A stretch of DNA of 64,000 nucleotides from an uncultured Burkholderiales bacterium (GCA_964488915.1 CAZAWU010000001.1:2749-66748); one strand, 5' to 3'; numbered from the stretch's first letter, positions 11,066 to 59,671 are shown. Numbers and translations: made by a program. Notes: generated by a model not told the origin, from the sequence alone.

Positions 11066-11935
11066 TCAGTACCCGCGGCCCCAATACTCGCAAAAGCGCT
11101 CCACATTGCCCGGAAGCCAGGCTTCATAGTTAGCCCATTTCTCATACTGCGGCAGCTTCACTTCCTTAATTGCTTGATCGAAGCACTTACCCGCCGCCGC
11201 TAACGGCTTCACTGCTTCCGAAACGTCGCTCATGTACTGCTTGAGCGCGCGCACGTCGTCCTTGCTGCCAAACCGCCCGCCGGCGTAGGGGTGGCCCGGA
11301 ATCATGCGCTCCCATTCGAGCGCCAGCACGCGATCGAGCGAATCGAACCAATCGGGGAGGTAACCGTCGGGCATGTCGCGAAACTGCACCGATTCGATCG
11401 GAATAAAGTCCACCGCAAACAAGATCTTCTCTGTTGGCAGCAGCATGACCAGCGAATTATCGGAATGATTGCGCCCCACGTAGTGCAGTTCCACGCGCAC
11501 GCCGCCGAGCTCGATGACGCGGCTATCGTCCACGCTCTCGTCCGGCAGTACCACCACAGGCGAACGCAGCGTTTCTAGGCGCGCTTTGGCATTGCGATGC
11601 GCGATGAACGTGGCGCCGAGCTTCTTGAACGCTTCGCCGCCGGCGATGTGATCGTAGTGATGATGACTGTAGACGACGTAGCGGATCGGCGCGCTCGTTA
11701 TCTTGCGAATCTCGTCGATGTAGGTCTGCGCCGCTTGCGGGCGCGCCAGCGATATCGGGTCGGTTGCGATTACGCCGTCCGGCGTTACCACGAACAACGA
11801 CTGATGATTTTGGTAGCGAAACACATACACGTTGTCGGAAACCTTGCGCGTCTCGAACAGAGTACCCTGCTGCTGGGCGTGCGCAACGGGCAGACAAGTC
11901 CAGCAAAAACACAGCGCCACGATCAGCTTGCGCAT
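11066..11935 (-). CDS. Secreted MBL-fold metallo-hydrolase
   Basis: HxHxDH motif in YVVYSHHHYDHIAGG. Signal peptide MRKLIVALCFCWTCLPVAHA. ATG 11935 with GGAG upstream is preferred over the TTG at 11953. Confidence 0.85.
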   Translation of the reverse strand: MRKLIVALCFCWTCLPVAHAQQQGTLFETRKVSDNVYVFRYQNHQSLFVVTPDGVIATDPISLARPQAAQTYIDEIRKITSAPIRYVVYSHHHYDHIAGGEAFKKLGATFIAHRNAKARLETLRSPVVVLPDESVDDSRVIELGGVRVELHYVGRNHSDNSLVMLLPTEKILFAVDFIPIESVQFRDMPDGYLPDWFDSLDRVLALEWERMIPGHPYAGGRFGSKDDVRALKQYMSDVSEAVKPLAAAGKCFDQAIKEVKLPQYEKWANYEAWLPGNVERFCEYWGRGY

Positions 11936-12148
11936 TGGCTTCTCCGAGAACAAAGGAATAGTTTACGCCTTCCCACAGCTCGCTCGCCCCGAGACCGGGC
12001 AATGAGGATAGATCATTGCCGAGTCAGTCATTTCTCTGGGACAGGCGCGCTATACTCGTTGCCGTCACGCCAGGCGTGGCTGCTGCGCCTCGATCGCCTT
12101 AGAACAATCTCGCCGCGGCACTCAACAGATCTGCTTAAAGGAGGCGCC

Positions 12149-13249
12149 ATGCACTACACCAAACTTGCCCGTTTCGCGTTCGCCGCCGCGCTAGCTTTCT
12201 GCGCCGCGCTCTATACGCTGCCGCTCCGCGCGGACGGAGGCCAGCGCATTAGTCAGCACGGCAAAGGCACCGCATCCGTACTGGTCGCCAACAGCCGCGG
12301 GAATAACATTCTGCGCTACGATCAACACGCCGGACGCTTCTTGGGCGAACTGGTGCCGGCCGGCGCTGGTGGCTTGTTTCACCCGGACACCATGATCATC
12401 GGCCCGGATGGACGCCTGTTCGTGTCTAGCGGCGAAACGTTGGCGGATTCGGCTATCCTGCGTTTCGACGCCTGCAGCGGCGCGTTCGCGGGCGTGTTCG
12501 CATCCGGCAACGGACTGCGGCGTCCCTACGGCATGGCGGCCGGTCCCGATGGCAAGTTCTACGTCGCGAGCTTCTTGAGCGATCAGATTCTGCGCTTCAA
12601 TGCCGCCACCGGCGCGTTCATCGACGTGTTCGCCGCCGGTAACGGCCAGCCGGGCGGACTGAACGGTCCGAACAGTCTGTTGTTCGATGAACACGGCGCG
12701 CTGTATGTCTCCACCGAAGGCAGCATCGCGGTCGATGGCGTGGCCACCTTCCCCGGTTTGCCGAGCCAGATTTTGAAGTTCGATATCCGCACCGGGACTT
12801 CGTCGGTGTTTGCCGATCAACCGCCGCCATCGGCGGAAGGCTTCGGCTTCGTCAGCCTACTCGGCTTGGCCTTCGGCCCGAACTGCGAACGCTCACGCAG
12901 CGGCAACCGGCTCGGCCACTGCGACTTATTCGTCAGCGATTTCGCGGGCGACGTGCGCCGCTACAACGGCGAAGGGCAAATCGTGCAGGTCTTGTCTACC
13001 AACTACACCGGCACCATCCCTAGCCAGAATTTCGTCGGCGGTTTGTCGTTCGGCAAGCGCAATCTATTCGTCGCCGCGTTCAACAACGCCCTTGACGGCA
13101 ACCCGGGCGCCGTCTTGCGTTACGACGGCCACAGCGGCGTCCCCCTCGCAGCGCCTGGACAAAACGGCGCGGTGTTCGCGCCGCAAAACGCCGCTCTCGC
13201 GCGGCCGATCGGCATACTCGCGCTCAACGAGGGATGCAAGCGGTGGTAG
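12149..13249 (+). CDS. Secreted NHL/beta-propeller repeat protein
   Basis: The first 552 nt of track ORF 11597..13249 run mostly antisense to the MBL gene. Trimmed to ATG 12149 with AAAGGAGG RBS. Signal peptide MHYTKLARFAFAAALAFCAALYTLPLRA. Recurrent units xxILR(Y/F)(D/N)xxxGxFxxxF...P.G(M/L)..GPDG.(L/F)(F/Y)V(S/A)S. Confidence 0.7.
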   Translation: MHYTKLARFAFAAALAFCAALYTLPLRADGGQRISQHGKGTASVLVANSRGNNILRYDQHAGRFLGELVPAGAGGLFHPDTMIIGPDGRLFVSSGETLADSAILRFDACSGAFAGVFASGNGLRRPYGMAAGPDGKFYVASFLSDQILRFNAATGAFIDVFAAGNGQPGGLNGPNSLLFDEHGALYVSTEGSIAVDGVATFPGLPSQILKFDIRTGTSSVFADQPPPSAEGFGFVSLLGLAFGPNCERSRSGNRLGHCDLFVSDFAGDVRRYNGEGQIVQVLSTNYTGTIPSQNFVGGLSFGKRNLFVAAFNNALDGNPGAVLRYDGHSGVPLAAPGQNGAVFAPQNAALARPIGILALNEGCKRW

Positions 13250-15296: not shown

Positions 15297-16784
15297 ATGA
15301 ATTTTCGCCGCTTTTGCTCTAGGACGCGAGCGCCGCAGCGGCGCGCGCTGGCGGCTTGCCTGGCGCTCGGCATGGCGCTGCAGCCATCGCATTTGCCGGC
15401 GCAAAACCTTCCCGATCTCGGTGACAGCTCGCGCAGCGCACTCTCCGCCTCGCAGGAGCGCGCAATCGGCAAGGAGATCATGGGCAAGCTGCGCACCGAC
15501 AATAACTACATGGACGACCCCGAAGCGCTCGACTATATCAACCGTCTCGGCGGCAAGCTGCTCGCTGCCAATCCGGAAGGCCGCCAAGACTTCGAGTTCT
15601 TCGTTATGCGCGATACTTCGTTGAACGCGTTCGCACTGCCGGGCGGCTATATCGGCGTACACACCGGGCTGGTCACGGCGGCGGAGAACGAATCGGAGCT
15701 TGCGAGCGTGCTCGCGCACGAAATCGCACACGTGACGCAGCATCACATCGCGCGCCTGGTCCAGGGTAGTCAAGCCAGTGCGCTGACGACGCTGGCGGCT
15801 GTCGCGGTGGCGATACTGGCCGCGCGCTCTAACTCGCAAGCAAGCCAGGCCGCGATCGCAGCGGCGCAAGCCAGTGCGATCCAAAGCCAACTGGATTTCA
15901 CGCGCGAGCACGAGCGCGAGGCCGACCGCATTGGCCTGCATACTCTCACGCAAGCCGGCTTCGATGCGCGCGCGATGCGCAGTTTTTTCGAGCGCTTGCA
16001 ACGCTATTCACGCCCCTACGAAAGCAATGCGCCTTCGTATCTGCGCACACATCCGGTCACCACCGAACGTATCGCGGATGTCGAGAACCGCTTGGCGCAG
16101 GTGCCGTACAGACAAGTCGTGGACAACCTTGAGTTTCAGTTGATTCGCGCGCGCTTGCGGGCGTTTTCGCTCGCCCCGCGCGAAGCGGTCAAGCTGTTCG
16201 ATTCCGCGCCGGCCGAGAAAACGCCCATCGCACTCGCGGCCCATGCCTACGGCCAGGCCTTGGCGTTGTATCGCGCCAACGACCTCGCGCGTGCCGACGA
16301 GACGCTCGCGCCCGCGCGCAAGCAGTCAAGCGCGTTGATCGAAAGTTTGGCCGCACAAATCAAGCTAGGGCTAGGCCAAAAAGCCGAAGCGCTCGCGCTC
16401 TATCGCGACGCGGTCAAGCGCTTTCCGGACGCACGTGCGCTAAACTACGGTTACATCGAAGCGCTGCTGAGCGACCGCCGCAGCGACGCCGCACTGAAGT
16501 TGGTCAACGATCGGCTGCAACTCACCAGCGGCGATGCACATTTGCATGAGCTGCAGGCACGCTGCTACGCCGCTTTGGGGCAGCGCTTCCGCCAGCACCG
16601 CGCGCAGGCTGAGGCGTATGCACAGCGCGGCCAACTCGGCGCGGCGATCGAACAATTGCAGTTGGCGCTGCGCGCGCGCGACGGTGATTTCTACGAAACC
16701 TCGAACGCGGAAGCGCGTCTGAAAGAACTGCAAAGCGCGCTGCAGGCTGAACGCAAAAGCCAACCCAACGCGCGAGCGAACTAG
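15297..16784 (+). CDS. bepA: Periplasmic M48 metalloprotease with TPR domain (BepA/YfgC-like)
   Basis: 495 aa. Signal peptide, HExxH in LAHEIAHVTQHH, downstream EREADRIG, TPR-like C-terminal half. Confidence 0.8.
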   Translation: MNFRRFCSRTRAPQRRALAACLALGMALQPSHLPAQNLPDLGDSSRSALSASQERAIGKEIMGKLRTDNNYMDDPEALDYINRLGGKLLAANPEGRQDFEFFVMRDTSLNAFALPGGYIGVHTGLVTAAENESELASVLAHEIAHVTQHHIARLVQGSQASALTTLAAVAVAILAARSNSQASQAAIAAAQASAIQSQLDFTREHEREADRIGLHTLTQAGFDARAMRSFFERLQRYSRPYESNAPSYLRTHPVTTERIADVENRLAQVPYRQVVDNLEFQLIRARLRAFSLAPREAVKLFDSAPAEKTPIALAAHAYGQALALYRANDLARADETLAPARKQSSALIESLAAQIKLGLGQKAEALALYRDAVKRFPDARALNYGYIEALLSDRRSDAALKLVNDRLQLTSGDAHLHELQARCYAALGQRFRQHRAQAEAYAQRGQLGAAIEQLQLALRARDGDFYETSNAEARLKELQSALQAERKSQPNARAN

Positions 16785-17173
16785 TGGCGGCAATGCGAAA
16801 CAACGCCACTGCGTCGGCATGGCGCGCGACACTGGCGGGGATGCTCGGCCTGGGCATTGCGGCATGCGCCGGTAACGGCGGCGACGGCAGCGTTAGTGCA
16901 TCGGCTGGGCGCCGCTTGGCGCACGACTGGAGCAAGGGCAACTGTCTCGCATGCCACAAGATTCCAGGAGACGCACAAGCCATCACGTCTGCGGACATCG
17001 GCCCGCCGTTGCAGGATATCAAAGCCCGCTTCCCGAATCGCGACAAACTGCGTGCGCAAATCTGGGATGCGCGTGGCGTCAACCCCGATACCGTGATGCC
17101 GCCGTTCGGGGCCGCGCACATCTTGACGGAAAACGAAATTGATAAAATCGTCGACTATCTTTACATCTTCTAG
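16784..17173 (+). CDS. soxX: Sulfur-oxidation c-type cytochrome SoxX
   Basis: 129 aa. Single heme motif CLACH in GNCLACHKIPG, then MPPFG. Possible lipobox GIAAC. GTG 16784 overlaps the bepA stop by 1 nt (alternative ATG 16793). Confidence 0.8.
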   Translation: MAAMRNNATASAWRATLAGMLGLGIAACAGNGGDGSVSASAGRRLAHDWSKGNCLACHKIPGDAQAITSADIGPPLQDIKARFPNRDKLRAQIWDARGVNPDTVMPPFGAAHILTENEIDKIVDYLYIF

Positions 17174-18041
17174 CGCCACTACAGTGTTCCCATCGCGCCG
17201 CCAATGGCTCGCCACCGGCGCGGCATCCGCCGCGTTGACCCTGTTGCGGCGCGCTCCAGGGCTTAGCGCGCTCGCAGCACCAACTTTTCTGAGCAAGGTC
17301 GCGGCCGCGGATGCGCCAGACTGGAATGCCGCCGCCTTCGACGCACGCAACCTTAGGGACGCGCTGCGCCTGTGGGGCATCGCGGAAGTGCAAGAGACCG
17401 CGGACATCGTGTTCCCGAGCGCCTGGGACACCGCCGAGAATGGGGCGGTCGTGCCATTGGAAGTACGCAGCAATATCCCGGACACGGAATCGATCACTTT
17501 GTTCGCCGACAAAAACCCGCAACCGCTGATTGCGAGTTTCAACTTCTTCAATGGCACCGAGACGTATGTATCGACGCGCGTCAAGCTCGGCGAGACGACG
17601 CTGGTGCGCGCATATGTCAAAGCGGGCGGCAAGCACTATCTGGCAACGAAGCAGATCAAAGTCACCATCGGAGGCTGCGGCGAATACGAAGTCGGCGCGC
17701 CGCCAACGGGCAAGCCTTCGGGCGAGCCGATGCGCACGCGCACGACGCTGCGTGGCGATGTCGCGGAAATCAAGGTCCTGATGAGCCATCCGATGGAGAC
17801 TGGGCGCCGCAAGGATGACAAGGGCAGGCTTATCCCGGCCTATCACATCAAGAACGTCGGCGTCAGCTTGAACGCGCACCCCGTGTTGCAAGCGCAGTGG
17901 GGCACGCCCGTTTCGCGCAATCCCTATCTAGCGGTGCGCGTACGCGGTGCCAAAGCGGGCGACAAAGTGCTGATCGCTTGGATCGACACAGCGGGTGAAA
18001 AGGCGCAGGTCGAAACCGTAGTGGACGTGCCGAAGACGTGA
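17139..18041 (+). CDS. soxYZ: Fused SoxY-SoxZ sulfur carrier protein
   Basis: Tat-type signal SRRQWLATGAASAALTLL. The SoxY body ends in KVTIGGCG, normally the C-terminus, but continues in frame (EYEVGAPPTGKPSGEPM) into a SoxZ body (RTRTTLRGDVAEIKVLMSHPMETGRRKD...). The start may be GTG 17184 rather than 17139. Confidence 0.8.
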   Translation: MIKSSTIFTSSSATTVFPSRRQWLATGAASAALTLLRRAPGLSALAAPTFLSKVAAADAPDWNAAAFDARNLRDALRLWGIAEVQETADIVFPSAWDTAENGAVVPLEVRSNIPDTESITLFADKNPQPLIASFNFFNGTETYVSTRVKLGETTLVRAYVKAGGKHYLATKQIKVTIGGCGEYEVGAPPTGKPSGEPMRTRTTLRGDVAEIKVLMSHPMETGRRKDDKGRLIPAYHIKNVGVSLNAHPVLQAQWGTPVSRNPYLAVRVRGAKAGDKVLIAWIDTAGEKAQVETVVDVPKT

Positions 18042-18883
18042 GGGGGATTGCAGCCGCGTCGCGCGCTCTGGCTGCGCTCCTGGCGGCGCTGATATCTACT
18101 GCGGAGGTCCACGCCGATCCTGCCGCGCAGCGCGCTGAGGTGATCGAGTTCTTTCAGCGTGCGTTTCCACAGTTTCCCCTAGACGACTACGCCCACGGAT
18201 CACTGATGTTTCGCCCGGAGGCGCGCAAGCAGTTCGAGAGCATTATGGAGTTTCCGCCGTTTCTGAGCACAATCGATCGCGGCAAGCAGATGTGGGATCG
18301 GCCCTTCGCCAATGGTAAGCGCCTGGCCGACTGCTTCGAAGACGGCGGACGCGGCGCGGCCGCCAAGTTCCCGCGCTACGATGCGGCACGCGGACAAGTG
18401 GTGACGTTTGAGCTGGCCGTGAACGATTGCTTGCGCACCAATGGCGAGCGGCCGCTGGCGTTTGCCGACATGAACACGATAGGTGCGCTGATGTCTTACG
18501 CGCGTACGCTTTCTGACGGCGCACGCCTCGATGTGCGCGCGGATACTCCGGAAGCGCAAGCGAAGTTGGACGCGGGCAAAGCAATCTACTATCAGCGACG
18601 CGGTCAAATGAATCTTGCCTGCTCTAACTGTCATATCGGCCTGGCCGGGCGCTACATGCGCGATGAGATTATTTCGCCCGTCGTCGGCCAAGCAACACAC
18701 TTCCCGGTGTTTCGCCGCGGCGGGGAAGAGTTGCTTACGGTGCAGGCCTACTTCCGGCGCTGCTTCACGCAGATTCGCGCGACCATACCGGCACTCGGCA
18801 GCGAGACGATGAACAATCTCGAGTACTACCACGCTTACTTGAGCAACGGATTGCCGATGCGCGCTTCGGTGTATCGAAAGTGA
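18038..18883 (+). CDS. soxA: Sulfur-oxidation cytochrome SoxA (single-heme type)
   Basis: 281 aa. Heme motif CSNCH (MNLACSNCHIGLAG) and a candidate distal Cys in AYFRRCFTQIR. No N-terminal second CxxCH. Start overlaps the soxYZ stop. Confidence 0.85.
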   Translation: MRGIAAASRALAALLAALISTAEVHADPAAQRAEVIEFFQRAFPQFPLDDYAHGSLMFRPEARKQFESIMEFPPFLSTIDRGKQMWDRPFANGKRLADCFEDGGRGAAAKFPRYDAARGQVVTFELAVNDCLRTNGERPLAFADMNTIGALMSYARTLSDGARLDVRADTPEAQAKLDAGKAIYYQRRGQMNLACSNCHIGLAGRYMRDEIISPVVGQATHFPVFRRGGEELLTVQAYFRRCFTQIRATIPALGSETMNNLEYYHAYLSNGLPMRASVYRK

Positions 18884-18908: not shown

Positions 18909-20057
18909 ATGAGCTTGCATCCGAGTTGGCCTTTGATTCGGCGCATCATCTTTTGGGTGCTGCTGCTTGCGGGGCTTTCCGCCGTCGCACTTGCCCTGCA
19001 GAAGCGCCCGGAACAAAAGCCGGCTCAGCGCTATCGCACCGAGGCGGTGGACATAGGCGACATCGTGCGCACCATTACGGCGAACGGCACGCTCAATCCC
19101 GTGGTGATCGTCAACGTCGGCACTCAGGTGTCAGGCACGATCGCCAAACTGCACGCGGATTTCAACGATCAAGTACGCGCCGGCCAAGTGTTGGCCGAAC
19201 TCGATCCCGCGTTGCTGCGCGCCGCCTTGCAGCAAGCGATCGCCAACCGCAACAGCGCGCAGGCCGATTTGCAGCTGGCGCGCGTCAAGGAAGCACGCTC
19301 GCGCTCACTGGTGCAGAAGGGATTCCTCGCTCAAGCCGAACTGGACGACGCCGTACAAGCCAGCGCGGCTGCTGCCGCCAAGGTCAAGGCGCTCGATGCG
19401 CAGATCGAGCGTGACAGAGCAAACTTGAACTACAGCGTCATCCGCTCACCGATCTCTGGCGTGGTGGTTGCGCGCAGTGTCGACGTCGGTCAAACAGTTG
19501 CCGCGAGCTTCCAGACGCCCACTTTGTTCCAAATCGCGCAGGACTTAAGAGAAATGCGCATCGAAACCAGCGTCGCCGAGGCTGATATCGGTTTCCTGAA
19601 AGAAGGCCAGCGCGTAACCTTTACCGTCGACGCTTATGCGGACCAGGTGTTCGACGGTGTGATCAAGCAGGTACGGCTTAATCCTACCATCCAGCAAAAC
19701 GTGGTGACCTACAACGCGGTGGTATCCGCCGCCAACCCGGAAGCGAAGCTGCTGCCAGGCATGACCGCACATGTACGCGCGGAAGCGCAGCGCCGCGATG
19801 GTGTGCTGCGCGTACCCAACGCAGCGTTACGGTATAAACCACGCGATAGCGATACTAAAGATAGTGTCATCCCAGGACAAACTGTTCACCTGATTTCAGA
19901 GGGCAAACTAACGACAGTACAAATCAAACCTGGCTTATCCGACGGCACGCATACGGAAGTCCTGGGCGGTGCGCTCAAAGCGGGCGACCAGGTTGTGGTG
20001 CGCGAAGCGCAGAGCGGAAGAACTGAGTCCTCCAACTTCCGCATCCGCATGTTCTGA
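18909..20057 (+). CDS. Efflux periplasmic adaptor (HlyD/MacA family)
   Basis: 382 aa. N-terminal TM, lipoyl-like halves (GTIAKLHADFNDQVRAGQVLAELD / IRSPISGVVVARSV) flanking a coiled coil, beta-barrel C-terminus. Confidence 0.85.
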   Translation: MSLHPSWPLIRRIIFWVLLLAGLSAVALALQKRPEQKPAQRYRTEAVDIGDIVRTITANGTLNPVVIVNVGTQVSGTIAKLHADFNDQVRAGQVLAELDPALLRAALQQAIANRNSAQADLQLARVKEARSRSLVQKGFLAQAELDDAVQASAAAAAKVKALDAQIERDRANLNYSVIRSPISGVVVARSVDVGQTVAASFQTPTLFQIAQDLREMRIETSVAEADIGFLKEGQRVTFTVDAYADQVFDGVIKQVRLNPTIQQNVVTYNAVVSAANPEAKLLPGMTAHVRAEAQRRDGVLRVPNAALRYKPRDSDTKDSVIPGQTVHLISEGKLTTVQIKPGLSDGTHTEVLGGALKAGDQVVVREAQSGRTESSNFRIRMF

Positions 20058-20073
20058 CGCGGGCTGAACTCGC

Positions 20074-20849
<776 letters not shown>

Positions 20850-20853
<4 letters not shown>

Positions 20854-22073
20854 TGCTGTTTACCGTAGCCGGCGAAGCGCTGCGCGCGTTGCGGGCGAAC
20901 CGGTTGCGCACCGCCCTGAGCATGCTCGGCATGGTGATCGGCGTCGGCGCCGTGGTGCTCATGCTCGGCATCGGGCAAGGCGCGCGCGCGAACGTCACGC
21001 GCGCCGTGTCCTCGATGGGTAGCAACGTGTTGATCGTCATGTCCGGCAACATGACCACCGGCGGCGTGCGGCTCGGACAAGGCGCCTCGCCGACGCTTAC
21101 GCTCGCGGACGCGGAGGCGGTGGGTAAGCTTGCATCCATCCTGCTGGTGAGCCCCACATCCAACAACAGCGCGCAGGTCAGCTTCGGCAATGCCAACTGG
21201 GCTACGAGCGTCGTGGGGGCCACGCTCAATTTCTTCGCCATCCGCGCCTGGACCGCCGAGCGCGGCGACTTCTTCACGGATGCGGATGTTCGCAATGCGG
21301 CGCAAGTCGCGGTGCTGGGTCAAACCGTGGTCAAGAACCTGTTCGGAGCCGAGGAGCCCGTCGGCAAGACCATTTCGATCAAAGGCAAACCGTTCGTTGT
21401 GCTCGGCACACTCGAGCCCAAAGGGCAGAGCTTGGACGGTCGCGATCAGGACGACACGATCGTTATCCCACTCTCTACTGCACAAGGCAAAGTCTTCGGC
21501 AATCCGTTTCCCGGCACCGTGCGCCTCATGATGGCGCAAGCGCGCTCGGGCGACGAGCTGCAAGCGGCGGAAGAGGAAATCACGCAACTGCTGCGCGAAC
21601 GTCACCGTTTGAGCGGCGACGCCGACAACGACTTCACCGTGCGAAATCTGACCAGCTACGCCGAAACGGCGGCGATGGCGGCACGCACGCTCACGCTGAT
21701 GCTCGGCGCGGTTGGATCGATCGCTCTCTTGGTCGGCGGCATCGGCATCATGAACATCATGTTGGTGTCTGTCACGGAGCGCACGCGCGAGATCGGCCTG
21801 CGAGTGGCCGTTGGCGCTCGGCAAGGGCAAATCATGTTGCAGTTTCTAGTCGAAGCAACTGTGATCTGTATTATCGGTGGCTTGCTCGGCGTGCTGCTCG
21901 GAGGCGTCGCTGCTTGGTTCCTGGCAAGCAGCCTGTCGATGGAAGTTGAATTGACTGCTAGCTCAGCTTTGGTTGCGTTCGCGTTCGCCGCCGGCAGCGG
22001 ATTGCTGTTTGGGTTGTTTCCCGCGCTGCGAGCAGCTCGACTCAATCCCGTTGACGCGCTTCGGTATGAGTAA
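20850..22073 (+). CDS. ABC transporter permease (MacB-type FtsX fold)
   Basis: 407 aa. N-terminal TM, large periplasmic domain, C-terminal FtsX-like TMs (IALLVGGIGIMNIMLVSVTERTREIGLRVAVGA). 4-nt overlap with the ATPase gene. Confidence 0.9.
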
Positions 22074-47516: not shown

Positions 47517-49664
47517 ATGCGCGAATCGCTTTACAGTCCCAATTGGTACCGCATCGCGCATTTAAAACCTAAGCTGCACCTGCACGTACGTGTCGAGCGC
47601 CAGCTCTATCGCCATCAAACCTGGTATTTGCTGCGCGATAGTACTTCCGGCAGGCATCACCGGATAAACGAACTCGCGTATCAATTCGTCGGCCGTCTGG
47701 ATGGCCGTCTCACTGTGGAGCAGATCTGGAATGTGCTCGCCGAAGAATTGGGTGATCGGCGCCCAACCCAAGACGAGATCGTTCAAACGCTCATCCAATT
47801 AGCAGAATTGGAGTTGATTCAGCCGGACCGCAATCCCGAATTCTCCGAAGTGTTTCAGCGGCGCGAGGAACGTGCGCGCAAGCGCTGGAGTAACGACGTC
47901 AACCCACTGTCGTTCAAAGTGCGCTTGTTCGATCCGAGCGACTTCCTGGCACGCTTTATTCGCGTTGCAAAACCACTATTCAGCTTGCCGTTCCTATGCG
48001 CGTGGATCGCACTCGTTGCAGCCGCGTTACTCGCCGCACGCGGCAATTGGGATGTGATCGTAGCTCACACCGCGACGGACGTCTCGACGCCGCGCTTCCT
48101 GCTACTGACTTGGCTGTGCTACCCGTTCATCAAACTGGTGCATGAATTTGCGCACGCATTCGCCGTAAAGGTTCTTGGTGGACACGTACGCGAAATGGGC
48201 GTGCGCGTTCTGTTTCTGACTCCGGTACCCTACGTCGATGCGAGCGCAGCAAACGGCTTGCGCGGCAAGTGGCAGCGCATCATGGTCAGCGTCGCCGGCA
48301 TCATGGCCGAGGTGCTCCTGGCGGCGCTGGCCTTGTTCGTATGGATATCGATTGAGAACGGGTTGCTCAAAGACGTCGCGTTCGTCACGATGCTCATCGG
48401 CGGCATATCGACGGTCCTGTTCAACGGCAATCCCTTACTGCGTTTCGACGGCTATTTCGCGCTCGCCGATCTGCTTGAATTACCGAATCTTGCACAGCGC
48501 AGCAATGCCTACTGGATGTACCTTGCGCAGCGACATGTTTGCCGATTGCGATCCGCGCCCTGCCCCGCCGCGAACTTGACCGAGCGGCTCTGGTTCCTCG
48601 CCTATGGAGCAAGCGCGCTAGTCTATCGGTGGCTGGTGTCGATCTGGATCGTTCTATGGATTAGCGGCAAGTCGGCCTTCCTCGCTATTGCGTTGAGTGT
48701 TTGGTTCATGTTCACGCTTATCGTGAAGCCTGCGGCTGCGGTCGTCGAGTTCCTCTTGCTAGCACCGCAGTTGGCTCGAATCCGGGTGCAGGCGATTGCC
48801 ATTGGCGCCTGCGCTCTTGCGGCAATCGTTGCTGTAATCCTGTTTCTTCCAGTGCCTTCTTCCACCTTAGCCCAAGGAATCGTGTGGCTGCCTGAGCAAG
48901 CCCGCGTACGAACACAAACGGACGGCTTTGTCGAGGAAATCCTCGCCCAAGATGGCAGCTTTGTAAAAGCGGGCGAAACGATAGCCCTGCTGAAGGCCCC
49001 TGACCTCGAAGCAAAGCGCAGCGAGCTAACCGCCAAGCTTGAAAGCCTAGAAGCTCAATACCAACGCGCACTAAGCGCCAGCCCCGGCGAAGCGACGGTC
49101 GCAGAGCAAGCGCGCGATCAAGCTCAAGCCGAATTGTCACTAGTCGAGCAGCGTCTCGGCGCATTGCGCATAGCTAGCCCTGCCGAAGGCAGGCTGGTGA
49201 TGCCGCACCAGAACGATTTGCAGGACGGCTTTGTGTCGCGCGGCACAGCGCTTGCCCACCTCATCACTGATTCGACACTGGAAGTTCGCCTGGCTGTGCC
49301 GCACAGCGACGCCGCACTAGTGCGCGAACGACACGACCGGATCGAGGTGCGGCTTGCTGAGCATCCCGAGCGCGCCTTGGCCGCACATTGGTTGCGTGAA
49401 GTGCCTGCCGCGACTCACGTCCTACCGGCGGCGGCACTAAGCGAGTCTTACGGAGGCAGCATCACGACCGATCCGCAAGACGCAGATGCATTGCTTACCC
49501 TGGAACCGGTCTTTGTATTTGACGTAAGTGTTCCTTCCAAGCGCTTTCAGCGAGCCGGCGCGCGCGCTTGGGTGCGTATCGACCACGGCAGCGAGCCCTT
49601 GGCCGCCCAGTGGGCTCGGAGTGTGCGCCGTATCGTCTTGCGCCACTTCACGGTCCAATCTTAG
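47517..49664 (+). CDS. PqqD-like N-domain / M50 site-2-protease membrane core / C-terminal HlyD-like domain fusion protein
   Basis: 715 aa. N-domain YQFVGRLDGRLTVEQIWNVLAEELG...IVQTLIQLAELELI. HExxH in LVHEFAHAFAV. Second M50 motif NGNPLLRFDGY. At least 6 TM segments. C-terminal coiled coil plus barrel (IALLKAPDLEAKRSELTAKLESLEAQYQ...IASPAEGRLV). Confidence 0.8.
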   Translation: MRESLYSPNWYRIAHLKPKLHLHVRVERQLYRHQTWYLLRDSTSGRHHRINELAYQFVGRLDGRLTVEQIWNVLAEELGDRRPTQDEIVQTLIQLAELELIQPDRNPEFSEVFQRREERARKRWSNDVNPLSFKVRLFDPSDFLARFIRVAKPLFSLPFLCAWIALVAAALLAARGNWDVIVAHTATDVSTPRFLLLTWLCYPFIKLVHEFAHAFAVKVLGGHVREMGVRVLFLTPVPYVDASAANGLRGKWQRIMVSVAGIMAEVLLAALALFVWISIENGLLKDVAFVTMLIGGISTVLFNGNPLLRFDGYFALADLLELPNLAQRSNAYWMYLAQRHVCRLRSAPCPAANLTERLWFLAYGASALVYRWLVSIWIVLWISGKSAFLAIALSVWFMFTLIVKPAAAVVEFLLLAPQLARIRVQAIAIGACALAAIVAVILFLPVPSSTLAQGIVWLPEQARVRTQTDGFVEEILAQDGSFVKAGETIALLKAPDLEAKRSELTAKLESLEAQYQRALSASPGEATVAEQARDQAQAELSLVEQRLGALRIASPAEGRLVMPHQNDLQDGFVSRGTALAHLITDSTLEVRLAVPHSDAALVRERHDRIEVRLAEHPERALAAHWLREVPAATHVLPAAALSESYGGSITTDPQDADALLTLEPVFVFDVSVPSKRFQRAGARAWVRIDHGSEPLAAQWARSVRRIVLRHFTVQS

Positions 49665-49674
49665 ACGTATCTGT

Positions 49675-51654
49675 ATGCGCACAGCGACGCTTCCGATCCC
49701 CGGAATCGTGTTCGGCACCTATCCCGAAAAACGCTCACCCGCCGTGACCGGCACGCGCGCGCTAGCTGCGCTACTGCGTCCCAAGCTGTTCGGTGATCGC
49801 TTGCTACGAGCGAAGTTCAGCTCTGTACGCGCCTTGATGGCCTCGCACTCCGACAACAGCCTTGACGCCATTCCCGCATTCAGAAGCAAGCTACATGCTA
49901 CTCGCGCACAATTGGGTCGCGACGGCTTCACACCTGCGCTGGTCGCGGATAGCTTTATCCTAGTCAGCAACGCGATCCACCGGCGATTGGGCTACCACGT
50001 GTTCGACACACAGCTCTACGCAGCTTGGATCATGCTGCACAATCGCTTGGCTGAAATGGCGACAGGCGAAGGCAAGACCGTTGCCGCCTCGCTCGCAGCG
50101 GCAACGGCCGCATTGGCCGGCATACCCGTGCACGTCATAACCGCCAACGACTACCTGGTGCAGCGCGACGCCGAACTACTGCGGCCAGTCTACGAAACCA
50201 TAGGACTCAGTGTCGGCTACGTAACTCAAATAATGGACGAGCAGCAGCGGCGCGAAGCATATGCATGCGACGTGACCTACTGCACGGCCAAGGAGTTGGT
50301 ATTCGACTATCTGAGAGACGGTCTTGGACGGCGAGCCCACGCGAGCGATCTGCACGCGCGCGCGGCACGACTGAGTTCCAACAGCCACCGCGCGCCGGTG
50401 CTACGCGGCCTTTGCATGGCAGTGATCGACGAAGCAGATAGCATCTTGATCGATGAAGCCCGCACGCCGCTAATACTGGCGCAGGCCCTCAACAACGAAG
50501 CACAGTCGAATCTCTATCGCGAAGCGCTTTCAGTAGCGGCCGAGTTACAAGCGTGGCAGCACTACCGATTGGACGAAACCCATCAGACGGCGGAACTCAC
50601 CGAAGCTGGCGTCATTCAATTGGAGCAGCGTTGCGGCGCCTTAACCGGTGGGTGGCGTGACCGGCGCTGGCGTCACGAAATGGTTACGCTCGCGCTGGCG
50701 GTTCAGCATCTGTTCGTGCGTGATAGGCACTACATCGTGCGCGACGGCAAAGTGATACTCGTGGATCAAACAACCGGACGTGCCGCAGCGGGGCGGATCT
50801 TCTCGCGCGGCATCCATCAGATGATCGAACTCAAAGAGGGCTGTGTCGTCACAGGTGAGCAGCGCACGATTGCTCAGATCACTTACCAACGCTTCTTCCC
50901 ACGCTACCATCGCTTATGCGGGATGAGCGGCACGCTGCGTGAAGCAGGCACTGAGCTGCAGAGTGTCTACGGACTTGACACCAGCGTCGTGCCGTTGCGC
51001 CAAACCAGCAAACGCCGCGTTTGGCCCATGCGCGTCTTTGCGAATGCGGGAGCAAAATGGACAGCAGTTGTGGACCGTATCGCCGAGTTGCACCGATCTG
51101 GCCGACCCGTATTGATCGGCACCGATTCCGTCGCCGACTCCGAGCAGCTTGCGCAGCGCTTAGCCAATGTCGGTCTGGCAGCACAAGTTCTAAACGCGCG
51201 CAACGACGGAACGGAAGCGACGATCGTCGCGCGCGCAGGCGAAGCCGGCGCCATCACGGTTGCGACTAACATGGCGGGCCGCGGCACCGACATCGTACTC
51301 GGCAAAGGCGTGGCTGAGCTAGGCGGCTTGCACGTCATCTGCTGTCAGCGCAACTCGGCGCGACGAATCGACCGTCAGTTGCAGGGTCGCTGCGCGCGGC
51401 AAGGTGATCCAGGCAGCACCGAAACGATCTTGACGCTCGATCAGGGACGGGTCCACAAGTACCTGCCTACCCACGTTCGGCGCAGTCTCGCGAATCCTCA
51501 CAACACGAAAGCGCTGCCCTCGATGCTGGGCGGCGCGCTCATCGCACTCCCGCAACGCATCGAAGAACTTCGCCACCAATTCGAGCGCTGGCAACTGCTG
51601 CGTCGCGACATCCTGATTGATCGTCGGCTCTCATTCGCCGGTCGCGGCGAGTAA
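49675..51654 (+). CDS. Truncated SecA-like DEAD-motor ATPase
   Basis: Trimmed to ATG 49675, 10 nt after the upstream stop. LAEMATGEGKT (Walker A), HVITANDYLVQRDA, VIDEADSILIDEARTPLILA, HYIVRDGKVILVDQTTGR, GMSGT, TNMAGRGTDI and RRIDRQLQGRCARQGDPGS follow the SecA NBD1/PPXD/NBD2 order. Only about 78 aa follow the last motif. Confidence 0.85.
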   Translation: MRTATLPIPGIVFGTYPEKRSPAVTGTRALAALLRPKLFGDRLLRAKFSSVRALMASHSDNSLDAIPAFRSKLHATRAQLGRDGFTPALVADSFILVSNAIHRRLGYHVFDTQLYAAWIMLHNRLAEMATGEGKTVAASLAAATAALAGIPVHVITANDYLVQRDAELLRPVYETIGLSVGYVTQIMDEQQRREAYACDVTYCTAKELVFDYLRDGLGRRAHASDLHARAARLSSNSHRAPVLRGLCMAVIDEADSILIDEARTPLILAQALNNEAQSNLYREALSVAAELQAWQHYRLDETHQTAELTEAGVIQLEQRCGALTGGWRDRRWRHEMVTLALAVQHLFVRDRHYIVRDGKVILVDQTTGRAAAGRIFSRGIHQMIELKEGCVVTGEQRTIAQITYQRFFPRYHRLCGMSGTLREAGTELQSVYGLDTSVVPLRQTSKRRVWPMRVFANAGAKWTAVVDRIAELHRSGRPVLIGTDSVADSEQLAQRLANVGLAAQVLNARNDGTEATIVARAGEAGAITVATNMAGRGTDIVLGKGVAELGGLHVICCQRNSARRIDRQLQGRCARQGDPGSTETILTLDQGRVHKYLPTHVRRSLANPHNTKALPSMLGGALIALPQRIEELRHQFERWQLLRRDILIDRRLSFAGRGE

Positions 51655-58256: not shown

Positions 58257-59507
58257 CTATCCGTGGCTCGGTGCCGCGCTATCGCCCGCGTGGAGAATAG
58301 CGCGAGGAATCAGCACCAGCTTGCCGAAATGCTGCACCGGCGGATCATCGCTCGACAGACAGATCTCTCGCAGCGCGCGCAGTACCTTGCCGGCCACGGT
58401 GTCGAGGTAGTACCAGCGTTCCAGCGCAGCTGATGAAAGCGCGCCCGGTTGCGCAGCGCCCGCTTCTTCGTAGAACGCGCGCAAGTCGTCGCACGCATTT
58501 TTCACGCGCGTAACCATCTCCGGGTCGCTATCTCCCGAGAAGGCCACGCTCAGACGCCCGACGATGAACTCGCCTGCCTGCTCGGGCGTCAACCCGCTCA
58601 GGCCGTAGGTCGTGCGCTCGTTGCTTCGCGCAATCTGGTCGAACCACGGCCGCAGTTGCGCGATTTCTTCCCGCAGCGCCTGGCCCAGCGCGGCGGTGCC
58701 TTGTAGCGCGGTCGGGGGACGGCTGAAGTTAACGGGGCACGAGGCACCCTCGAAATCCGCGCTTGGCGCGTAGGCGATTTCGGTTGCGAAATCGCGCAGA
58801 ATCGGGCCTGCGGGTTCCTCGAGCAGCGCAAGCGCCGCCATCAGCACGTCGGCTTGAAGCTTCGGCTCATGCGGCGCGCCGAATGGCCGACCGAGCGCAA
58901 ACGGCACCCATAGCGCCCGCGGCGGGCGCATGACTTCGGTGTGTTCGCGCACCAGGCTAACCAGCGTCGTTGCAACCCCTTCTTCCTCCAAATACTGACC
59001 GATGGCGCTCACGGCGCACGTGCAATTCGGTCAAACTGGGCAGAGCACCGCCGCATCGACGCCGTCGCGCTTTAGTAGACCAGCTAACTGGCGCGCAGTG
59101 TGCTCGAATTGTGTGGGCGGAAACGGCGCGCCCATGAACGAGTAGTGATAGTCGGCCACCGAGCCGATCGCCCCCTCATCGGCTAACTCGCGCAGCCGGT
59201 CCACCGGCAAGACGACGTTCACGTCTTGGCGGTAACCGGTGCGGTCGAAGTTGACCGAGATATGACTCATGACCAATTCGCTGGCCGCGGTGTCGGACGG
59301 TATGACGCGATACTCCGTTGCACCCGCGCCGCTGCCGAAGGAGCGATCTCCGCGGCGATGCAGGCCGGCGGTGCTTATCAGCGCGACACGGCGCTCGCGC
59401 AGCGCTGGGCCGTGCACCCATGGACGGGTGGTAAAGGTGGGCGCTCTGCGCCCAAGATTGAGCAGATGCTCGCGCTCCCATTCGGGTAAGTCTGCCAGGC
59501 GAACCAT
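58257..59507 (-). CDS. GrdB-family (glycine/sarcosine/betaine reductase component B-like) protein with in-frame TGA, candidate selenoprotein
   Basis: Track ORFs 59031..59507 and 58257..59012 are in the same frame, separated only by the TGA at 59033..59031. Read-through gives ...GVDAAVLCPV-U-PNCTCAVSAIGQYLEEEGVATT..., matching the GrdB selenocysteine context (..GVDAVILTSTUGTCTRCGATMVKEIE..). Confidence 0.7.
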
Positions 59508-59671
59508 GTTTGCTTCCTTCTCGTTAGTTATCGGCGAATCGTTACTCTAGCGCGCAGCCCGTTCACGGACAGGCAGCACAGCAAAAAAACAATAGAGCGC
59601 GCGTTTTAGTCGGCACCGGAGGCTTTGGCTGCGTCGTTGAGCCGATGCGCTTTGCGTCCCCCGCGCGCTGT

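Follow-up and report, generated by a model that had tools for sequence, protein, structure and literature searches.

The textbook Sox mechanism relies on the free C-terminal swinging arm of SoxY, which enters the partner enzymes. To our knowledge, no fused SoxYZ carrier with an internal cysteine has been characterised biochemically. The fused SoxYZ architecture itself is not new: many such proteins are known and some are published. Proteins of the TIGR04557 type contain a highly divergent SoxY with a mutated arm motif and are encoded beside pyrroloquinoline quinone (PQQ) alcohol/methanol dehydrogenases and SoxH (PMC11237559), and the divergent fused S2 and S4 clades adjoin PQQ alcohol and methanol dehydrogenases (PMC11237559, PMC12997753). 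Fused SoxYZ are also found in symbionts and methylotrophs (PMC11237559, PMC6548844), including Methylophaga thiooxydans (PMC6548844), and in Alphaproteobacteria (Ghosh et al., 2009, as cited in PMC11237559). Auxiliary fused soxYZ genes with a "ggCs" cysteine are carried by phages (Kieft et al., 2021, PMC8190135). A 2026 survey of sox clusters lists fused sox(AX), in a passage that names no fused soxYZ inside the core cluster (PMC13500833). Here we describe a fused soxYZ gene located between soxX and soxA in a 64,000-nucleotide stretch of DNA from an uncultured Burkholderiales bacterium (GCA_964488915.1 CAZAWU010000001.1:2749-66748), the whole of which is called the window below. The SoxY half of this carrier belongs to the canonical lineage, its sulfur-carrying cysteine lies inside the chain, and the fusion has been kept under strong purifying selection.

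The gene is a single open reading frame (ORF) on the plus strand, running from a GTG at 17184 to a stop at 18041 and encoding 285 amino acids plus the stop. Its parts are listed below, where omega is the ratio of non-synonymous to synonymous substitution rates and Tat is twin-arginine translocation.

17184..18041, plus strand: fused soxYZ; SoxY and SoxZ profile matches, identical public protein P0001, omega 0.05-0.07 over four lineages
17184..17318, plus strand: putative Tat signal region, residues 1-45; SRRQWL twin-arginine motif read from the sequence, with the RR aligned in relatives
17319..17681, plus strand: SoxY domain, residues 46-166, ending KVTIGGCG; TIGR04488 and PF13501, with VTIGGC invariant in alignments
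17682..17729, plus strand: inter-domain linker EYEVGAPPTGKPSGEP, residues 167-182; 16 residues, at the likely place of the former soxY stop and soxY-soxZ spacer
17730..18041, plus strand: SoxZ domain, residues 183-285, and stop; TIGR04490 and PF08770, with the stop overlapping the soxA start (GTGA)

Called mechanically, the ORF covers 17139-18041 and opens at a TTG at 17139. The GTG at 17184, which gives MFPSRRQWL... with its twin-arginine motif, is likely the true start, since it is used by the identical protein P0001 and agrees with the relatives. Across the junction the window reads AAA GTC ACC ATC GGA GGC TGC GGC GAA TAC GAA GTC, which translates stop-free as KVTIGGCGEYEV, and direct reading past the SoxY motif gives AAAGTCACCATCGGAGGCTGCGGCGAATACGAAGTC, again without a stop. 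The carrier cysteine, Cys165, is encoded by the TGC at 17676-17678, and after the carrier motif the protein runs on as GGCG-EYEVGAPP... for 120 more residues. A first-pass annotation of this DNA had proposed that SoxY and SoxZ form one polypeptide, that the SoxY body ends in KVTIGGCG and is followed by no stop, and that the carrier cysteine is therefore internal, at the junction of the two domains. The window codons and the single stop-free frame bear this out, and the linker string (EYEVGAPPTGKPSGEPM) and start of SoxZ (RTRTTLRGDVAEIKVLMSHPMETG) given there are correct.

Both domains score above the cut-offs of the NCBIfam profiles for the "true" proteins. The SoxZ part matches SoxZ_true (TIGR04490) with 107.3 bits against a cut-off of 76, over residues 185-278. 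The SoxY part matches SoxY_true_GGCGG (TIGR04488) over residues 21-166 with 126.8 bits against a cut-off of 125, which is a marginal pass because the last profile position is without a match. Pfam concurs, placing PF13501 (SoxY) and PF08770 (SoxZ) in the same ORF. At the N-terminus, SRRQWL at residues 4-9 aligns with the RR motif of the relatives as a putative Tat signal, export being predicted only.

The fusion recurs outside this assembly. A gene identical to the window soxYZ is present in two independent Logan assemblies, and diverged fused versions with 76-83% amino acid identity are found in GCA_902826775.1 (the NCBI metagenome-assembled genome (MAG) "Proteobacteria sp. RBC049"), in the ERR30892xx runs, in ERR11593397 and in JGI metagenomes. 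Every member of this clade, comprising at least four diverged lineages from independent assemblies, is fused and placed between soxX and soxA, and none has an in-frame stop at the SoxY-SoxZ junction. Nei-Gojobori analysis of four lineages gave synonymous distances (dS) of 0.9-1.6 for the whole of soxYZ, which are saturating, together with omega values of 0.05-0.07. Over the 16 linker codons, each pair of lineages shows 4-9 synonymous and only 0-2 non-synonymous changes (omega 0-0.07). Averaged over pairs in the clade, amino acid identity is 94% in the linker, 89% in the SoxY domain, 85% in the SoxZ domain and 40% in the Tat signal, making the linker the best-conserved segment of the protein, though it is predicted to be disordered. 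The flanking soxX (omega 0.13-0.19) and soxA (omega 0.06-0.13) are constrained as well, with their haem and cysteine-ligand motifs kept. Purifying selection, the conservation of the individual segments and the constraint on soxX and soxA together indicate that the fusion is translated, that it is old on the time scale of synonymous change, and that its function has been maintained.

An AlphaFold2 model of the fused protein was built from a 49-sequence alignment. Its predicted template modelling score (pTM) is 0.80, and the predicted local distance difference test (pLDDT) exceeds 90 in both beta-sandwich domains. Residues 161-180 have a pLDDT of about 57, falling below 50 at 167-169, and no secondary structure; the Tat signal region is a predicted helix followed by low pLDDT. 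When superposed on solved chains of SoxY and SoxZ, the two halves of the model reach target template modelling (TM) scores of 0.77-0.83, with root-mean-square deviations of about 2 Å. By sequence and fold the SoxY domain matches chains of 2NNC, 2OXG and 4UWQ, and the SoxZ domain matches the solved chains 1V8H, 2OX5_Z and 4UWQ_C. Every relative in the PDB is a separate chain, and no structure of a fused SoxYZ is known there. The prediction thus puts Cys165 at the foot of a flexible loop that joins two domains packed with high confidence. The first-pass annotation had called the cysteine buried; the model places it on a low-confidence coil and not in a core.

The likely origin of the fusion can be read from its unfused relatives. 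A species-level scan, with one genome per species and 185,579 species, gave 79 loci, of which 78 have a soxY that ends in GGCGG followed by a stop, and a separate soxZ starts with MADPMKIR or similar; the sole fused locus is that of the RBC049 MAG. A scan of metagenome contigs did not enlarge the fused clade, yielding only unfused relatives among the matches listed. Outside its own clade, the best 108 matches of the SoxY domain are single-domain SoxY proteins with 54-61% identity, and a fused protein from elsewhere first appears at rank 109. For the SoxZ domain the best 12 matches are all single-domain, and such a fused protein first appears at rank 13. These ranks rule out common descent with the other fused SoxYZ clades. 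The window SoxX and SoxA are, respectively, 51-64% and 38-48% identical to proteins of X-Y-Z-A clusters; both resemble their counterparts in the Y-Z-X-A and Y-Z-A orders common in Betaproteobacteria far less, SoxA being about 25% identical there. Since both domains have unfused proteins as their nearest relatives, the comparison indicates that this fusion is independent of other fused SoxYZ families and that an ordinary operon of the order soxX-Y-Z-A(-B) was its source.

The closest unfused cluster (L110) suggests how this could have happened. Its soxY and soxZ share a frame and are separated by one stop, VTIGGCGG*WLQANRKTKMADAMKIR, and 16 residues lie between the cysteine and the conserved SoxZ methionine, compared with 17 in the fusion. 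With the two genes in frame and a spacer of similar length, a single stop-codon loss would give the fusion directly. The likely route is therefore loss of the soxY stop codon, the short in-frame spacer becoming a linker that was refined later.

Three further genes form a unit with soxYZ.

15297..16784, plus strand: gene for a BepA-like periplasmic metalloprotease of the M48/tetratricopeptide repeat (TPR) type; NF052400, with Pfam Peptidase_M48 and TPR in orthologues
16784..17173, plus strand: soxX, monohaem cytochrome c; TIGR04485 at 88 bits against a cut-off of 61, with CLACH at residue 54
18038..18883, plus strand: soxA, monohaem; TIGR04484 at 187.2 bits against a cut-off of 110, with CSNCH and the RRCF cysteine-ligand motif

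The profile scores of soxX and soxA agree with the first-pass description of a bona fide soxX/soxA context. The genes are tightly packed: soxYZ begins 11 nt past soxX, and soxA overlaps the soxYZ stop. The M48 gene is probably the first of the transcription unit, as its stop overlaps the soxX start. Its product aligns with the whole of the NF052400 (M48_BAM_BepA) profile at 357.9 bits, short of the cut-off of 570. The upstream order MazG-RsmJ-MoaC-M48-soxX-soxYZ-soxA is common to the window and its relatives. On the downstream side, genes for a MacA-like adaptor and a split MacB-like ATPase/permease lie at 18909-22073 on the plus strand, 25 nt past soxA, and no convincing plus-strand terminator was found before about 22.1 kb. 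These efflux genes follow soxA only in the lineage of the window. The relatives have tetrahydromethanopterin (H4MPT)-pathway genes (MCH, Fae) in that place, together with a PQQ dehydrogenase, a gene set that points to methylotroph-like Betaproteobacteria.

No soxB, soxCD or second soxY was found in the window by six-frame motif scan, GC3-based gene calls and two Pfam batches, nor was soxB found by tblastn with the SoxB of cluster L057 as query (verified at 888 bits against TIGR04486). None of the three was found within the 10 kb flanks of the relatives, which the tblastn search for soxB also covered. In the unfused M48-X-Y-Z-A clusters L057, L174 and L175, soxB directly follows soxA. The absence of soxB nearby sharpens the question of how SoxXA, and above all SoxB, would use an internal cysteine. 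A different layout was seen in the betaproteobacterial MAGs L023, L029, L035, L039 and L040, which carry tandem soxY-soxZ pairs (Y-Z-Y-Z-A-B), about 2.3 kb apart and with identical junctions.

We lean, with modest confidence, towards a selectively maintained single-chain carrier whose Cys165 is loaded by SoxXA and whose sulfur is then processed without canonical SoxB docking or by an unlinked enzyme. The fused SoxYZ would be exported by Tat, folded and as one chain, in place of the usual route by which SoxZ, having no signal, leaves together with SoxY; this would also fix a 1:1 stoichiometry. Cys165, on the flexible inter-domain loop, would remain the sulfur-binding site, and the co-encoded SoxXA cytochrome would oxidatively attach thiosulfate, or sulfide as a persulfide, to it. 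The bound sulfur could then be handled by persulfide/polysulfide build-up and transfer, or be passed to an enzyme encoded elsewhere. This fate is favoured because a looped arm could not thread the SoxB tunnel like a free end, and because soxB is not linked. In the 4UWQ structure, from 2015, the SoxY arm reportedly lies in a narrow SoxB tunnel, its C-terminal carboxylate beside the metal site; a looped arm would need to enter as a hairpin.

The frequency of internal cysteines elsewhere also counts for a single-chain carrier. When the SoxY C-terminus, linker and SoxZ were searched together against 1.84 billion cluster representatives, 54 of the best 150 matches were of at least 220 amino acids, and 35 of these have GGC at the SoxY-SoxZ junction, each as a separate 50%-identity cluster. 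Several others of the 54 carry GSC, GAC or SGC at that position. The first-pass annotation was right that fused carriers exist in other contexts, and under-weighted how common they are.

Three points weigh against this reading. An unlinked soxB, soxCD or canonical soxYZ may be present elsewhere in the genome. The low confidence of AlphaFold2 around Cys165 does not prove flexibility. Finally, a passive loop accounts for the very high conservation of the linker no better than a sequence-specific role would, for example that of a cleavage site.

The last point leads to the best-surviving alternative, a pro-protein that is exported whole and cut in the linker just after GGCG, by the M48 protein or another periplasmic protease, to give canonical SoxY and SoxZ working with SoxXA and an unlinked SoxB. 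We consider it unlikely, on balance. A linker with 94% identity and an omega of 0-0.07 that is yet predicted to be disordered resembles a recognition site, a gene for an M48/TPR protease is translationally coupled upstream, and cleavage would lift the steric problem with SoxB. An M48 homologue also occurs within 4 kb in 50 (60%) of the 84 unfused loci whose upstream sequence spans 4 kb or more, and near the fused P0129. The same count shows, however, that an M48 neighbour is equally common beside unfused soxY/soxZ and is not specific to the fusion; the M48 protein also matches the profile of the housekeeping BepA from end to end. The linkers of dozens of other fused families are unrelated, and there is no nearby soxB to use a regenerated arm. 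The case for cleavage is one of conservation and gene context.

Less probable again, and more speculative, is that the linker is a functional element of a SoxB-independent minimal module (M48-SoxX-SoxYZ-SoxA). It might serve as a maturation site cut by M48 that unmasks the GGCG arm on demand, or as a docking peptide that presents the looped cysteine to SoxXA; the M48/TPR protease might be, more broadly, an unrecognised accessory factor of Sox carriers.

It is very improbable that the operon is a decaying remnant, left unused after loss of soxB, in which a read-through fusion is tolerated on the way to a pseudogene. Although soxB is missing from the window and from the flanks of the relatives, and the cluster sits among housekeeping genes, soxX, soxYZ and soxA are intact in four lineages at a dS of about 1 or more, their omega values are low (0.05-0.07 for soxYZ, 0.06-0.13 for soxA and 0.13-0.19 for soxX), and the haem motifs, the SoxA cysteine ligand and VTIGGC are all kept.

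The least credible explanations are the two that the first-pass annotation had named as capable of overturning the fusion, a soxY stop lost through sequencing error and separate products arising by internal initiation of SoxZ. The former is ruled out, as independent assemblies from different projects and four diverged lineages with saturated synonymous change agree on the fused architecture, with no in-frame stop; for the latter, an ATG does lie exactly at the conserved internal methionine of separate SoxZ proteins (the Met of GEPMRTR, where initiation would be at 17730), but the bases upstream vary at synonymous sites with no conserved Shine-Dalgarno sequence (GGGCGAGCCG, GGGTGAGCCG, GGGTGAACCG), and internal initiation would still leave SoxY without a free GGCG end.

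The association of M48 genes with soxYZ deserves mention in its own right. The arrangements vary in order and orientation among loci L004-L177. M48 precedes X-Y-Z-A-B, stands divergently to Y-Z-X-A-B or Y-Z-A-B, or precedes Y-Z in Methylophaceae-type MAGs (Methylophilaceae); in a further arrangement a fused soxYZ comes before radical-SAM and M48 genes. Examples of the M48 genes are L057 141-1244, L077 7773-9353 and L177 2642-3943. In the literature searched we found no paper linking SoxYZ with M48 or BepA. The adjacency could be deep synteny, or M48 could be an unrecognised accessory factor.

Other features of the window lie apart from the sox genes. On the minus strand, 58260-59546 holds two adjacent ORFs, one with a GRDB C-terminal domain (glycine/sarcosine/betaine reductase component B), which is unusual for an aerobic-looking proteobacterial neighbourhood, and the other without a Pfam match. 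At 49528-51651 on the plus strand there is a SecA-like ORF of about 708 amino acids that contains DEAD, preprotein cross-linking and P-loop domains. A typical SecA is longer, so the ORF may have been called too short or may encode a paralogue of the SecA2 type. A plus-strand ORF of 550 amino acids at 11597-13249 has weak NHL/ScyE-like similarity, and the corresponding site in the relatives holds TusA, rhodanese and GNAT genes upstream of MazG.

A SoxY of canonical lineage that is paired with SoxXA and has its arm tied as a loop, all under strong selection, constitutes a natural experiment. It bears on which Sox partners need a free end, and on what SoxXA-SoxYZ does without a linked SoxB. It is also a clean example of gene fusion, probably through stop-codon loss, with a spacer recruited as linker. 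What is gained is modest, since many fused SoxYZ carriers whose cysteine is internal have been found and such forms are published. Two features stand out: the extreme conservation of a linker predicted to be disordered, and the widespread adjacency of M48 and soxYZ.

Compared with the canonical SoxYZ of Paracoccus pantotrophus (2OX5/2OXG) and Thermus thermophilus (4UWQ) and with the Chlorobium SoxY (2NNC), the window protein matches in both domains, by sequence and fold. It shares with them the VTIGGC motif, the Tat signal on the SoxY part and the adjoining soxX and soxA. It differs in being one chain where the solved canonical structures are separate chains, in having its cysteine followed by G-EYEV... 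instead of GG-COOH, with no free C-terminal arm, in having a SoxZ that is not a separate signal-less subunit, and in having no linked soxB. The nearest operons are the M48-X-Y-Z-A-B clusters of uncultured Gammaproteobacteria (L057, L174, L175 and L077) and L110, which have the same gene order. The M48-X-Y-Z-A clusters, L110 included, carry the closest relatives of the window SoxX and SoxA, and the protease of the same-order unfused clusters is 31-40% identical to the window M48 protein. Unlike the window, they keep the soxY stop (GGCGG*), and L057, L174 and L175 have soxB.

Among fused proteins, those of the PQQ-dehydrogenase-associated family TIGR04557 share the SoxY-SoxZ architecture and a periplasmic location, which for the window protein is predicted. 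Membership in this family is ruled out by a score of 112.2 bits, below the cut-off of 140, and by gene context. In contrast to TIGR04557 proteins, the window protein keeps the canonical VTIGGC, and its gene is flanked by soxX and soxA. Among the window ORFs scanned, none had a PQQ or metallo-beta-lactamase domain, and the PQQ dehydrogenase of the relatives is about 9.5 kb downstream on the opposite strand, not adjacent. The phage fused soxYZ likewise joins SoxY and SoxZ in one chain with a conserved cysteine at the junction; it differs from the window operon in being phage-borne and without soxXA. VTIGGC-based patterns found no relative of the window protein in a viral contig collection.

The other fused clades P0008/P0128, P0014, P0135 and P0129 also keep a cysteine at the junction, followed by a linker rich in Pro, Ala, Gly and Asp. 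They are only 36-41% identical to the window protein overall, and their linkers are unrelated in sequence. In the P0008/P0128 clade, whose internal motif is GGC[AS], the carrier gene always has fccAB-like genes as divergent neighbours (L086 1235-3921, L087, L094 8148-10801, L095); fccAB encodes flavocytochrome c sulfide dehydrogenase, which suggests a sulfide-linked role for that carrier. The remaining contexts sampled were HDOD genes (P0014, P0135), radical-SAM and M48 genes (P0129), and no obvious partner; soxXA was beside none of the five other fused SoxYZ sampled. What distinguishes the window protein from these systems is that it is a fused carrier in a soxXA context without a linked soxB.

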